A DNA stretch of 43,322 nt from a virus. How positions within the stretch are numbered: position 1 is the stretch's first letter; each line of letters starts with the position of its first letter. The position numbers and the translations under genes are program-made. This document shows positions 28,490-31,801 of the stretch, in pieces. The notes beneath the pieces are model-generated. The model did no database searches. It saw nothing but the letters and a program-made list of their open reading frames with translations, and was not told the origin of the DNA. The stretch spans positions 1 to 43,322 of IMG/VR virus record IMGVR_UViG_3300045988_014780; one strand, 5' to 3'.

Positions 28490-28660
28490 TTGATTTTGAA
28501 TGGTTCAGAACTGGTGGCCCGGCTGGTGGCCTGCGGCTTCACGGAATCCAGCGCGTGGGACATTTGCATGAAATATGCCACTGACGGAAATTACTCCGGC
28601 CTGGAAGGATACATCCACCAGCAGGAGCTTTTGTATGATGACCGAAAGCAATATGTTTGA
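28490..28660 (+). CDS. Small hypothetical protein (56 aa, below the ORF-track cut-off)
   Basis: My own translation from TTG 28490: ILNGSELVARLVACGFTESSAWDICMKYATDGNYSGLEGYIHQQELLYDDRKQYV. AAGGA lies 11 nt upstream. Confidence 0.3.
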   Translation: MILNGSELVARLVACGFTESSAWDICMKYATDGNYSGLEGYIHQQELLYDDRKQYV

Positions 28661-29015
28661 ATTTTACAATTCGAACCCCTACGAGAAAAATGTGGGGGAT
28701 TGTACCGTCCGGGCCATCTCGAAGGCGCTGGAGCAGGACTGGTACAGGACATACCTTGGCCTCTGCATTGAGGGAGCTGTGAGAGGCGATATGCCAAGCG
28801 CAAACGCCACATGGGGGGCTTATCTCCGACGGCATGGCTTTCAGCGTGACATGGCACCTGAGGACATGACCGTGGCAGAGTTCGCGATGGGGCATCCGCA
28901 CGGCACTTACATCCTGGCCCTGTCTGGGCATGTAGTATGCCTGCAGGATGGTGTGATCTACGATACGTGGCACAGCGAGAACGAGACCGTACTTTACTTC
29001 TGGCAGAAAGGATGA
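28635..29015 (+). CDS. Putative papain-like (Cys-His) peptidase-fold protein
   Basis: ATG 28635 (listed ORF starts at 28575). GDCTVRAISKA (candidate Cys) and SGHVVCLQDGVIYDTWHS (candidate His). Assignment is from the motif pattern only. Confidence 0.4.
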   Translation: MMTESNMFEFYNSNPYEKNVGDCTVRAISKALEQDWYRTYLGLCIEGAVRGDMPSANATWGAYLRRHGFQRDMAPEDMTVAEFAMGHPHGTYILALSGHVVCLQDGVIYDTWHSENETVLYFWQKG

Positions 29016-29021
29016 CGTGAG

Positions 29022-29429
29022 ATGCCGAACTATCCCTATTACTATCAGCCGTACCAACCGTATCAGCCGCCTATGGCGGACCAGCTGACACAACTGCGGC
29101 AGTCCTATCAGCCCATGCAGCAGCCGCAGCAAGCCCCGGCGTCACCGTCTATTGTGTGGGTGCAGAGTGAGATGGAGGCGGCAAATTATCTGGTGGCGCC
29201 TAACTCTGCCGTTACCTTGTGGGACAGTAACGCCCCAGTGGTCTATCTCAAACAGGCGGACGCAAGCGGCAAGCCCAGCATGAAGATATATGACCTTGTA
29301 GAGCGCAATCAGCGGCCCGTACAGGCCCCGCAGGTTCCGGCGGTAGAGTATGCGCCCCTGTCTCGTCTGGAGGCATTGGAGGCCCGCCTGGATGCGCTGG
29401 CGGCAAAAGATAAGGAGGATGCGGAATGA
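29022..29429 (+). CDS. P/Y/Q-rich low-complexity N-terminus protein, unknown function
   Basis: 135 aa. N-terminal MPNYPYYYQPYQPYQPP...QPMQQPQQ, then a globular segment and a coiled-coil tail. Confidence 0.6.
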   Translation: MPNYPYYYQPYQPYQPPMADQLTQLRQSYQPMQQPQQAPASPSIVWVQSEMEAANYLVAPNSAVTLWDSNAPVVYLKQADASGKPSMKIYDLVERNQRPVQAPQVPAVEYAPLSRLEALEARLDALAAKDKEDAE

Positions 29430-29647
29430 ATCCCTTTTTCCAGGCGATGGGCGGCAACAGACAGCCCAACATGATGCAGCAGTTTCAGCAGTTCATGAAT
29501 CAAATGAAAGGCAAGGACCCCAACGCCATGATACAAGAGATGGTATCCTCTGGACGCATTTCCCAAGATCAGCTTAACCAAGTCCAGAATCAGGCCCAGC
29601 AGATGCAGGGCATGTTTGAGGGAATGCGGGGAATGTTTGGGAAGTAA
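29426..29647 (+). CDS. Q/M-rich small protein, unknown function
   Basis: 73 aa. ATGA overlap with the upstream gene. Contains NMMQQFQQFMNQMKG...QLNQVQNQAQQMQGMF. Confidence 0.55.
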   Translation: MNPFFQAMGGNRQPNMMQQFQQFMNQMKGKDPNAMIQEMVSSGRISQDQLNQVQNQAQQMQGMFEGMRGMFGK

Positions 29648-29738
29648 CCATTTCTAAACCAATTTTTAAACCATTTCAAACCATTTAATCAAAATCCCGG
29701 CCGGGTTTTGAAAATAAATCTACAAAGGAGATAACACA

Positions 29739-30497
29739 ATGAGTCTTTCTTCTGACGGCGCTGTGATGACCATGCCCGTGACTCCTGCCTATCAGGGCGG
29801 AAACGGCGGTTTCGGCGGCTGGGGCGGCGATTGGGCCTCCTGGATTATCCTGTTCCTGATCTTCGGTATGTTCGGCTGGGGCGGCTATGGCGGCGGCTGG
29901 GGTGGTAACTCCGGCAATGGCCTGGGTTCTCCCTCCGGTCAGGGCTGGGCCACCAGGGCCGACATCAACGAGGGCTTCGCCCTGAACGGTCTCCAGAACG
30001 GCCAGACCTCCATCCGGGATGCCGTGAGCAACGGTTTCCACAGTGTTGATAATTCCATCTGTAATCTGGGGTATCAGCTGCAGGATTGCTGCTGCCAGAC
30101 CCAGCGGGCAGTTGATGGCGTGAATTACAACATGGCTACTCAGGCCAATGGTATCCAGAACGCCATTCAGGGTGTGCGGTACGACATGGCTACCCAGGCC
30201 TGCGATACCCGCAACACCATCCAGAACAGCACGCGGGACATCATCGACAACGCCAACGCCAACAGCCGCGCAATCCTGGACTTCCTAACCCAGGACAAGA
30301 TCGCTACTCTGACGGCTGAAAACCAGAGCCTGAAATTCCAGGCTTCTCAGGCGGCTCAGAATGCTTTCATCACCGCCAATCAGGAGGCGCAGACTGCCGA
30401 GCTGATCCGCCGCATCAATCCCATGCCGGTCCCGGCCTATCAGGTGCCCAATCCTTATGCCGGATGTGGCTGCAACCCCTGCGGCTGCGGCTGCTAA
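29739..30497 (+). CDS. Gly-rich membrane-anchored, Cys-rich protein (YjcZ-like N-terminus, GCGCNPCGCGC C-terminus)
   Basis: 252 aa. RBS AAAGGAG. GGNGGFGGWGGDWASWIILFLIFGMFGWGGYGGGWGG, then QDCCCQTQ and a terminal AGCGCNPCGCGC. Confidence 0.65.
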   Translation: MSLSSDGAVMTMPVTPAYQGGNGGFGGWGGDWASWIILFLIFGMFGWGGYGGGWGGNSGNGLGSPSGQGWATRADINEGFALNGLQNGQTSIRDAVSNGFHSVDNSICNLGYQLQDCCCQTQRAVDGVNYNMATQANGIQNAIQGVRYDMATQACDTRNTIQNSTRDIIDNANANSRAILDFLTQDKIATLTAENQSLKFQASQAAQNAFITANQEAQTAELIRRINPMPVPAYQVPNPYAGCGCNPCGCGC

Positions 30498-30609
30498 AAT
30501 CCAATACATCAACTTGTAAGAAAGGCTTACATGTTCGGCCCCGTGCCGATTTTGAACCATGCGGCGGGGCAACAGCCTCGCCGCTATCTTTTTGAAAGGA
30601 ATGAAGTTT

Positions 30610-31032
30610 ATGGCTGAATTTACTGGAGTATTTGTCCAGCAGGTGGCCGCTAACCAGAACGTGGTCTTTACGGAGACGCCTGTCAGCGGGTCTAATTGCA
30701 TCGTGCACCGTGACGGCTCCGGCATCGTTACCCTGCGTGGAATGACGAATCAGTGCCGCGCCCGCTATAAGGTGGTTTTCGGCAGCAACATTGCAATTCC
30801 CACCGGCGGCGCGGTAGGCCCTATCTCCGTTGCCATCGCTGTGGAGGGAGAGGCACTGGGCAGCGCTACTGCTATTGTGACCCCTGCCGCGGTGGACGAG
30901 TTTTTCAACGTGTTTGCTGCGGCCTTTATTGAGGTCCCCCGTGGCTGCTGCGTGACTGTGGCAGTCAAAAATACCAGCGCGGAGACGATTGAGGTTGAAA
31001 ATGCTAATCTGATCGTTGAGCGCGTGGCTTGA
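30610..31032 (+). CDS. BclA C-terminal-domain-like (C1q/TNF-like jelly-roll) protein, tentative
   Basis: 140 aa. The end ...VAVKNTSAETIEVENANLIVERVA parallels the B. anthracis BclA CTD ending ...TSASIIIEKVA recalled from memory. Beta-rich pattern throughout. Confidence 0.5.
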   Translation: MAEFTGVFVQQVAANQNVVFTETPVSGSNCIVHRDGSGIVTLRGMTNQCRARYKVVFGSNIAIPTGGAVGPISVAIAVEGEALGSATAIVTPAAVDEFFNVFAAAFIEVPRGCCVTVAVKNTSAETIEVENANLIVERVA

Positions 31033-31045
31033 AAGGAGAGTCAAC

Positions 31046-31444
31046 ATGTATATGCACGAACTGAAAGAAAAGCTCTGCGAAGAGTTGGAGGAGATCGCCC
31101 GCAAGCCGGAGATGTCTGCTGGTGACCTTGAAGCTGCTCACAAGCTGACCGACACCATCAAGAACATCGACAAGATCGAGATGCTGGAAGAGGACGGTGG
31201 ATACAGCCGGGCTGGGGACTGGGAGGCCGATATGCGCGGCACTTATGCCCGCGGCTCCAGCTACCGTGGCCGGAAGCGGGACTCCATGGGGCGGTATAGT
31301 CGGGATGGGCGCATGGGCGGATACAGCCGCCACGACGCCAAAGAGGCTATGATGGAACAGGCCCGCGAAATGATGGAGGACGCGACCAACGAAAGGGAGC
31401 GTGAAGCCATCCGCCGGTTTATGACTGAGCTGGAACGGGATTGA
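31046..31444 (+). CDS. Charged protein with GYSR/RYSR repeats, unknown function
   Basis: 132 aa. RBS AAAGGAGAG. Contains GGYSRAGD...SSYRGRKRDSMGRYSRDGRMGGYSRHD. Confidence 0.6.
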   Translation: MYMHELKEKLCEELEEIARKPEMSAGDLEAAHKLTDTIKNIDKIEMLEEDGGYSRAGDWEADMRGTYARGSSYRGRKRDSMGRYSRDGRMGGYSRHDAKEAMMEQAREMMEDATNEREREAIRRFMTELERD

Positions 31445-31459
31445 TAGGGGGTGCCCCCT

Positions 31460-31801
31460 ATGCTAGACCCCAAAGAGATCGACATTGAGATTGCTCGTCT
31501 GGAGTACGGAGAGAGCAGCTATCCCGCATACGCTAAATTGGCAACCTTGTACACCATCAAAAACCAGATGCAGAAGCAAGAACCGGAAATGCAAAATCGC
31601 ACCTATGAGCAAGCCTATTCTGCGGCTCCGGCTGAAATACCTGTAGAGGTCGGGAGATACGGAGACAGCGAATTTCTCCGCGAGGTTGAAGGGAGAAACG
31701 AGGAGCAGGTATGGGGCATTATGGATGACTTGATGGACACGCTGCAGGTTGCTAATCCCCGTGTGTATAACGGGGTAATGCGAAAAATACGGTCCCTATA
31801 A
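31460..31801 (+). CDS. Hypothetical protein (last gene of the cargo cassette)
   Basis: 113 aa from ATG 31460 (GTG 31451 is also possible). Confidence 0.6.
   Translation: MLDPKEIDIEIARLEYGESSYPAYAKLATLYTIKNQMQKQEPEMQNRTYEQAYSAAPAEIPVEVGRYGDSEFLREVEGRNEEQVWGIMDDLMDTLQVANPRVYNGVMRKIRSL

Follow-up and report, generated by a model that had tools for sequence, protein, structure and literature searches.

The stretch of viral DNA considered here is IMG/VR record IMGVR_UViG_3300045988_014780, 43,322 nt in length and referred to below as the window. It carries a cassette of eight genes, named O1 to O8, which is carried mainly by temperate siphophages of gut Clostridia and whose central genes maintain a constant order in widely diverged relatives. 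From the gene arrangement, the protein sequences and structural models we tentatively interpret this cassette as a conserved, autonomous accessory operon of the moron type, the products of which would form a membrane-anchored complex with, for example, a role resembling superinfection exclusion. The window constitutes a complete genome of a temperate, siphovirus-type phage encoding a large terminase, an SPP1-type portal, minor capsid protein 2, an HK97-type capsid protein, a Hol44-type holin (Phage_holin_5_2), an Amidase_2 endolysin and a tyrosine integrase (Phage_integrase), and the gene order runs from the holin and amidase genes through the cassette and a putative tRNA-type phage attachment site (attP) to the integrase. 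The cassette genes, with protein lengths in amino acids (aa), and the terminators that bound them are as follows.

28354-28388, plus strand: upstream intrinsic terminator, fold -20.7 kcal/mol, z -3.9, then U6
28490 (TTG start) or 28481 (GTG start) to 28660, plus strand: O1, small helical protein, 56-59 aa
28653-29015, plus strand: O2, predicted papain-fold Cys/His/Asp peptidase-like protein, 120 aa, phrog_3754
29022-29429, plus strand: O3, P/Y/Q-rich disordered N-terminus, beta domain and C-terminal helix, phrog_21718
29426-29647, plus strand: O4, Q/M-rich helical protein, 73 aa, phrog_22984
29739-30497, plus strand: O5, 252 aa with one hydrophobic anchor, phrog_16490
30610-31032, plus strand: O6, predicted TNF/C1q-like jelly roll, 140 aa, phrog_20016
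31046-31444, plus strand: O7, helical ends and an R/G/Y/S-rich low-complexity core, phrog_28802
31460-31801, plus strand: O8, helical protein, 113 aa
31807-31830, plus strand: downstream terminator closing the cassette, 10-bp stem, -19.7 kcal/mol, z -4.8

All eight plus-strand open reading frames (ORFs) recognised in the first-pass annotation of this DNA are present where it had placed them, and the traits that it quoted were all found: the P/Y/Q-rich N-terminus of O3, the Q/M-rich composition of O4, the Gly/Trp-rich hydrophobic part and GCGCNPCGCGC end of O5, the NANLIVERVA end of O6 and the GGYSR repeats of O7. O2 to O7 match PHROG families at E 2e-15 to 2e-83 (O3 2e-54, O4 5e-38, O5 2e-83, O7 2e-15), all six annotated as "unknown function" and entered in the PHROG table as separate families, and these matches, together with conservation in dozens of divergent loci, establish the ORFs as real genes. 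Scans of all eight proteins against Pfam, NCBIfam and PADLOC yielded no family, with just two chance-level matches (E 0.036 and 0.045) in PADLOC. RNA folding bore out both of the flanking terminators that had been read from the sequence. A generic terminator scan of the region gave no enrichment over shuffled sequences (12 found, 9.7 expected) and the case therefore rests on the two specific hairpins and their recurrence in relatives; the junction of a terminator and a promoter-like box is also seen in relatives L003, L009, L020, L023, L025, L027 and L030. The upstream terminator closes the late/lysis operon and insulates the cassette. Within the latter, the O2 start codon overlaps the O1 stop codon (ATGTTTGA) and O3 and O4 overlap in the sequence ATGA, which suggests translational coupling in both cases.

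The cassette was found in other prophages: at least 579 IMG/VR contigs match it and, among these, 76 to 80 of the 80 best loci show O2 to O7 in fixed order. Genes O6 and O7 are present in all 80 of these loci, O4 and O5 in 78, O3 in 77, O2 in 76 and O8 in 68, and the absences mostly reflect short or cut contigs. A constant order of O2 to O7 was also observed for about 25 of 32 loci from species-representative metagenome-assembled genomes, binned mostly as Oscillospiraceae, Oscillibacter, Lachnospiraceae or Clostridia. Relatives show 27% to 100% identity to the window proteins and, since the order is the same at identities down to 27%, it has outlasted deep divergence. The same block occurs in Dulem virus 33, where it follows the lysis genes and precedes the integrase, and in a prophage on a 214-kb metagenomic scaffold, and in Dulem virus 35 the whole block lies between a gp7-like minor capsid gene and the major capsid gene, still with the hairpin and box upstream of O5 that are described below. 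Its location at this other site indicates that the block moves as a unit.

The surroundings of the block are more variable than the block itself. Among 62 loci, the first large ORF on the downstream side encodes a tyrosine integrase in 39 and a serine recombinase in about 10; on the upstream side, at least 36 of 73 loci have a cell-wall hydrolase as the closest large ORF, the lysins being of the Amidase_3, GH25 and Amidase_2 types. Such variety around a constant block implies that the flanking modules are interchangeable, and the figures (a recombinase downstream in about 49 of 62) confirm for the relatives the position between lysis genes and attachment site or integrase that had been noticed in the window.

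More distant occurrences extend beyond temperate phages. Butyrivibrio virus Ceridwen, a cultured phage of Butyrivibrio fibrisolvens which was observed only in lytic growth, has no excisionase and was judged to be virulent by its authors, has O2 to O8 behind its lysin. In the C. perfringens phage CPD1 (L002) relatives of three cassette proteins were detected using hidden Markov models, at the following positions.

4487-4927 of CPD1: CPD1_036, relative of O3
5842-6459 of CPD1: CPD1_039, relative of O5
7114-7509 of CPD1: CPD1_042, relative of O8

Genes lying between these could be unrecognisable counterparts of O4 and O6; the gene after O5 in CPD1 and in the crAss-like phage cr116_1 was considered as a hidden O6 relative and rejected (hhalign probability below 4%). 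O8 occurs in Dulem virus 33 as well as in Ceridwen and CPD1, and a DUF7841 protein takes its place in some loci. Among single genes, O5 alone reaches the crAss-like phages, and O2 alone reaches Bacillus (Tsamsa-like), Geobacillus GBK2, Lak mega- and Pseudomonas PAK_P1-like phages. What is already known is that the proteins exist as PHROGs, that some relatives are labelled "BclA protein" and that the leader RNA is in Rfam. We found no description of the block as a unit, or of its function, in the literature, in agreement with the initial impression that no system of this composition had been described.

Several elements between the genes accompany the block and may contribute to its expression.

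28388-28398, plus strand: promoter-like box TGTGAGAAAAT of the TRTG-type extended -10 kind, directly behind the terminator (read from the sequence)
28407-28460, plus strand: RAGATH-31 motif (Rfam RF03101), 5' leader of O1 to O4, 80.0 bits, E 3e-15
29645-29719, plus strand: O4-O5 spacer with AAACCATTT repeats, a palindromic hairpin and a -10-like box
30498-30609, plus strand: O5-O6 three-hairpin element, with H1 at 30506-30522, H2 at 30526-30540 and H3 at 30561-30584

On inspection, similar TGnnAnAAT/TATAAT boxes abut the terminator in relatives. The RAGATH-31 match exceeds the gathering score of 71.8, spans model positions 1-54 of 54 and recurs at the same place in four related loci (L003 7717-7771, L009 3717-3771, L046 7762-7815 and L062 7839-7892). 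In another clade the leader position is occupied by DUF3800-VIII (RF03075), another orphan Rfam motif (L115 7656-7719), and the cassette start seems to be a favoured place for structured RNA leaders. RAGATH denotes RNAs associated with genes associated with twister and hammerhead ribozymes, and the reason for these gene associations is not settled according to a review. A scan of the window and of 40 related loci detected no twister, hammerhead or other ribozyme. In general RAGATH-31 occurs near genes associated with those ribozymes, whereas here it is the leader of a defined operon, and the cassette thereby gives this orphan motif a defined genetic setting.

The O4-O5 spacer carries four AAACCATTT repeats at 29645-29686, spaced by 10-12 nt, and the window has one additional exact occurrence of the 9-mer, at 42213. 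The palindromic hairpin at 29692-29709 is followed by an A/T-rich -10-like box at 29714-29719, and both precede O5 in most loci, with a hairpin sequence that varies between loci. As a shared operator the palindrome was discounted, because it does not recur elsewhere in the window above chance. In the O5-O6 element, pairing in H1 is maintained through at least seven different sequences, H2 (TCGGCCCCGTGCCGA) is nearly invariant, and H3 consists of a terminator-like stem and U-run located just ahead of the O6 ribosome-binding site. The element has no Rfam match. It is common to Oscillospiraceae-type loci and absent from Lachnospiraceae-type loci, where O5 and O6 abut, and it may represent an unannotated attenuator or an element of the 3' untranslated region.

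O5 is the only cassette protein with a hydrophobic segment as judged by hydropathy, the others lacking any signal-peptide-like or transmembrane segment. Its anchor, at about residues 33-49, is flanked by Gly/Trp-rich sequence; behind it lies a middle region of helical repeats in which a CCC motif is conserved, and the protein closes with a tail, RPxPxPAY..NPY..C..CGC, that the CPD1 and crAss-like relatives still share. Because the tail and the Gly-rich anchor are common to the crAss-like relatives, they are hallmarks of the O5 family rather than spore-coat signatures; crAss-like phages are generally held to infect Bacteroidales. O5 is, moreover, the fast-evolving member of the cassette. In L003 its identity is 32%, as against 91% for O6, and in the IMG/VR prophage contig L046, whose UViG number resembles an isolate-genome identifier, it is 78%, as against 92-99% for the other proteins (O1-O4 and O6-O8). 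In close relatives its middle gains or loses repeat units of about 20 aa between flanks that are about 90-100% identical. NCBIfam and Pfam models, including YjcZ, failed to match O5, which with 252 aa also differs from the tiny Gly-rich membrane peptides (about 30-50 aa) of the YjcZ family. A sequence search of PDB chains gave nothing significant for O5; weak matches to influenza HA2 were seen, and these are probably behind the "spike protein/glycoprotein" label attached to crAss-like O5 relatives.

O6 is the most conserved member. At E 0.001 it has at least 7,978 relatives, with at most 8,000 candidates scored, and one close relative is present on at least 1,000 contigs. A library clustered at 50% identity contains 675 clusters, of which the 150 best representatives, those listed, are 70-205 aa in length. 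The AlphaFold (AF2) model, based on a 74-sequence alignment, has a mean confidence (pLDDT, predicted local distance difference test) of 95.8 and, when compared with the PDB using Foldseek, exosporium-type proteins rank first. The F-BclA C-terminal domain (CTD; 9h38) leads at E 2e-7 in a top group with E 2e-7 to 8e-6 and template-modelling (TM) scores of 0.71-0.77, followed by the BclA CTD (1wck, 3tyj, 2z5w) and ExsFA/BxpB (7r1m, 8d02, 9h3d; TM scores 0.72-0.77), then by TNF-family ligands and, at about E 1e-4, by phage fibre knobs (among them the phi812 spike and a cyanophage fibre). The BclA-CTD-like character first ascribed to O6 from its C-terminal sequence is thus upheld for the fold and not for the sequence, where O6 matches no Pfam or NCBIfam model (E up to 0.1), BclA_C included, where identity amounts to 10-16%, and where a search of PDB chains produced nothing significant. 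The fold covers all 140 aa, and neither a collagen stalk nor a targeting domain was found in O6 or in the 150 listed relatives; in its modelled architecture O6 is closer to the stand-alone ExsFA/BxpB than to BclA, and it probably forms a trimer. Stand-alone O6-like proteins are common among predicted structures from uncultured gut sipho-, myo- and podoviruses, a few of them already labelled "BclA protein", and matches in BFVD include "fibritin neck whiskers" and tail fibres. Proteins of the BclA/ExsF fold are widespread, therefore, in phages whose hosts make no exosporium.

For O2, the suggestion of a Cys/His peptidase-like protein was supported. No substitution of D16, C17, H93 or D104 occurs among 21 divergent and 59 closer sequences, and the fold of the AF2 model (pLDDT 96.3) appears papain-like. 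The best Foldseek matches, all to clan CA and weak (TM scores of 0.48 or less), are to Josephin-2 (E 0.07, probability 0.89), the C39 domain of ComA (E 0.33), staphopain and PCAT1; Pfam gave no match, and sequence and alignment-profile searches of the PDB gave nothing usable. The small O1 has divergent relatives, with the motif RL(V/I)AxG...A...G...LE, preceding O2 in several clades. O1 matched nothing in Pfam or the PDB, alignment-profile search included, and a UBA-like identity was unsupported, the sole match being to a leucine-rich repeat of NLRP1 that arose by chance.

The remaining proteins combine low-complexity stretches, rich in Pro/Tyr/Gln in O3, Gln/Met in O4 and Arg/Gly/Tyr/Ser in O7, with conserved small domains or helices. 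An alignment of 24 O3 relatives revealed a conserved beta domain of about 55 aa, for which a sequence search of PDB chains gave nothing significant, and O8 matched no family.

Taken together, the mobility of the block as a unit, the terminators, the location at the attachment site or integrase in about 80% of loci and the single diversifying anchor protein make a moron-type operon the most economical explanation, and model scans revealed no NTPase, nuclease or known defence domain in the cassette proteins. In the mechanism that we propose, soluble O6, the low-complexity proteins O3, O4 and O7, and O8 would assemble on membrane-anchored O5, giving a Cys-rich complex at the membrane or envelope of the host. 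One component of this complex may be a substrate for processing by O2, and the repeat-variable middle of O5 would be the part that bears specificity. The complex would serve the prophage, or the infecting phage, in conflicts at the cell surface and would build neither virions nor spores.

A number of observations weigh against this proposal. The hydrophobic core of O5 is short, at about 11-16 residues with Kyte-Doolittle values of 1.4-2.2, and the proposal depends on a putative physical interaction between O5 and O6. The sigma-A-like -10 boxes of the cassette are putative promoters recognised by resemblance on inspection, and a strict extended -10 pattern occurred in 4 of 28 loci relative to a background of 10%, that is, without enrichment. 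To our knowledge, superinfection-exclusion systems are single genes, as opposed to the seven here. Finally, both the retention of the cassette in Ceridwen and the diverged members near late or lysis genes in CPD1 and the crAss-like phages agree with a role in the lytic cycle no less well than with one in lysogeny.

Among the alternatives, an accessory virion structure survives best, although we consider it unlikely. O5 would then provide a trimeric helical stalk and O6 a head, yielding a fibre, whisker or decoration, with the other proteins acting as assembly factors. Phage fibres frequently end in TNF-like knobs, and the Foldseek and BFVD matches of O6 to such structures are consistent with this, as are the repeat-variable helical stalk of O5 with its faint HA2-like similarity, the position of the block within the head-gene cluster of Dulem virus 35, its retention in Ceridwen and partly in CPD1, and the location of crAss-like O5 relatives near capsid and lysis genes. 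Yet about 80% of loci have the block separate from the structural operon, preceded by a terminator and adjacent to an integrase, and O5 carries a hydrophobic segment of the membrane type. Stand-alone O6-like proteins occur in predicted siphoviruses, myoviruses and podoviruses alike, and seven genes with so much low complexity would be unusual for a fibre module.

It is distinctly unlikely that the cassette functions in defence or counter-defence, with O1 and O2 as a protease or deconjugase directed against a host or rival-phage system and the other proteins as co-travelling effectors or decoys. Like many counter-defence genes, the O2 family is distributed patchily over unrelated virulent and temperate phages; its best fold match is the deubiquitinase Josephin-2, the cassette position is a classic hotspot for such cargo and O5 evolves fast. 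Against this, PADLOC models did not match, neither a nuclease nor an NTPase nor any other domain typical of effectors or sensors was found, the UBA-like nature of O1 was not borne out and the strict collinearity of seven genes over deep divergence favours one machine.

An arrangement in which O5 forms a membrane-anchored, trimeric helical stalk of variable length, with an O6 trimer bound to its Pro-rich end peptide to give a two-chain, BclA-like fibre, appears improbable. Such a fibre may be displayed on vegetative cells or released particles of non-sporulating gut Clostridia; the end peptide may be the N-terminal MPVxPA or the C-terminal RPxPxPAY..NPY..CGC of O5, O2 may perform the cleavage or attachment, and Cys, Gln and Tyr residues may provide cross-links. 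The proposed attachment of O6 to O5 mirrors the capture of the N-terminus of BclA or F-Anchor by ExsF/BxpB and, if correct, would represent a phage-borne counterpart of exosporium nap assembly outside sporulation, and might point to an evolutionary relationship of the TNF-like proteins of phages with those of the exosporium.

A lysis-associated function, in which O5 would be membrane active, spanin-like or fusion-like, or would regulate lysis in concert with the adjacent holin and endolysin, is highly improbable. The cassette, or O5 alone, does follow lysis genes closely in four phage groups that are unrelated to one another, represented by the window phage, Ceridwen, CPD1 and crAss-like cr116_1, and the N-terminal anchor, coiled-coil-like region, Cys residues and Pro-rich segment of O5 resemble those of i-spanins, to which the weak similarity to HA2 may be added. 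However, according to a review the host lacks an outer membrane, so that a spanin is not needed, the cassette is its own terminator-bounded transcription unit, the block can lie in the head module away from lysis genes, and the TNF-like O6 and the low-complexity proteins are left unexplained.

The remaining explanation derives from the first-pass annotation, which had proposed that the prophage remodels the spore surface by supplying BclA/ExsF-like, Cys-rich and Gly-rich building blocks that are laid on the host spore or exosporium, and it depends on the identity of the host. The exact O6 sequence has been recorded from Dysosmobacter welbionis (WP_412625315.1), and proteins from two isolates, Oscillibacter sp. 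KLE 1728 and KLE 1745, fall into the 90% cluster of O2; judging from these sequences, the window phage likely infects Dysosmobacter or Oscillibacter. The description of D. welbionis is that of a non-spore-forming species, and a non-sporulating host is among the outcomes that the first-pass annotation itself had named as refuting its proposal. Absence of spores is here an observation from culture, however, and sporulation may occur in other hosts of related phages. CATA...TA or CATAyAnT boxes, of the sigE/sigK type, were absent within 90 nt upstream of O5 in 28 loci, and BclA_C, YjcZ and spore-coat models matched none of the eight proteins. Despite the exosporium proteins F-BclA, BclA CTD and ExsFA/BxpB being the best structural neighbours of O6, ExsFA/BxpB likewise being a stand-alone TNF-like protein, the coat-protein-like composition of several members (rich in Cys, Gly, Tyr or Gln and devoid of signal peptides), the presence of O5, O3 and O8 relatives in phages of the spore-former C. 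perfringens and the general capacity of many Oscillospiraceae and Lachnospiraceae to sporulate, this is the least probable explanation of all, given a host described as non-spore-forming, a full cassette in a phage observed only in lytic growth on the non-spore-former Butyrivibrio fibrisolvens, the negative promoter and model searches, the lack of a collagen stalk in any O6 relative listed and the extension of the O5 hallmarks to crAss-like phages.

Two further features flank the cassette.

28080-28331, plus strand: p83, 83-aa helix-turn-helix protein with weak KorA and sigma-70 region 4 similarity, last gene ahead of the terminator
31991-32022, minus strand: 32-nt tRNA 3'-end fragment (T-arm, acceptor, CCA), likely attP core (read from the sequence)

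Of the 80 IMG/VR loci, 69 have a p83 relative ahead of the cassette, and p83, a conserved neighbour, may be a regulator linked to the cassette. In the close relative L003 a SocA_Panacea-domain, antitoxin-like gene pair (6559-7436, minus strand) lies between the p83 homologue and the cassette, indicating that the same junction also takes toxin-antitoxin cargo. On the other side, the tRNA fragment is plausible as the attP core; ARAGORN detected no whole tRNA at this site, and a complete tRNA or tmRNA gene lies just beyond the cassette in relatives. Right behind the cassette terminator there are two exact tandem copies of ATTTCATCTGTA at 31830-31853, and a 16-bp inverted repeat at 31952-31984 is situated just ahead of the tRNA fragment; these may correspond to integrase arm sites and a bidirectional terminator. 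Further afield, the lysogeny-side region at 33000-37000 has a G+C content of 0.39-0.43, compared with about 0.5-0.59 elsewhere (apart from scattered 1-kb dips to 0.45-0.48), which suggests that its genes were acquired more recently or came from a different source. A 358-aa protein with a PAPS-reductase-like domain is encoded in the early region (1102-2178, plus strand); such domains are found in phage DNA-modification and DndC-like proteins.

The cassette is among the commoner gene blocks of unknown function in phages of the human and animal gut. Dysosmobacter and Oscillibacter, in whose prophages it occurs, are commensals of current health interest. Should the cassette change the cell envelope or keep out other phages, it would influence the dynamics between phages and hosts, and possibly the host-facing surface properties, in a major gut lineage. 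The cultivable phage Ceridwen and lysogens among isolates (Oscillibacter sp. KLE 1728/1745) make the question testable.

When individual proteins are compared with known systems, partial likenesses emerge. O2 shares with clan CA peptidases, such as Josephin and the C39 domains of ComA and PCAT1, the order of an N-terminal helix with the Cys and a beta-sheet with the His and Asp, and differs from these families in being a minimal, stand-alone protein of 120 aa that is matched by no family model. The N-terminus of O5 resembles the YjcZ-family sporulation membrane proteins in having a short hydrophobic segment within Gly-rich sequence, but O5 has in addition a large helical domain, and the same N-terminal style is seen in its crAss-like relatives. 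Its layout is also similar to that of i-spanins, with an N-terminal transmembrane segment and a coiled coil; the lipoprotein partner of the latter is missing from the cassette. For O6 the best PDB matches, the BclA CTD and ExsFA/BxpB, have the jelly-roll fold in common with it. BclA carries a collagen-like GXX stalk and an N-terminal targeting domain, both of which O6 lacks, while ExsFA/BxpB is a stand-alone protein like O6, of about 140-170 aa, with about 10% sequence identity. ExsFA/BxpB is a TNF-like trimer that captures the N-terminal peptides of nap proteins, and the comparison with O6 is one of fold and size only. BclA and ExsF, furthermore, belong to the Bacillus exosporium, whereas O6 is encoded by a phage with a host described as non-spore-forming.

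For the cassette as a whole the closest parallel is with morons, for which we take as the comparison set lambda bor and lom, together with gp15 of HK97, a moron-encoded membrane protein that blocks DNA entry. Like morons, the cassette is bounded by terminators, carries promoter-like boxes, is located near the attachment site and integrase, is movable and encodes a putatively membrane-anchored protein. Morons comprise one or two genes, whereas the cassette has eight, in two or three sub-units, and, unlike typical morons, it is nearly universal and collinear in a large group of phages and occurs also in Ceridwen, for which only lytic growth has been observed.

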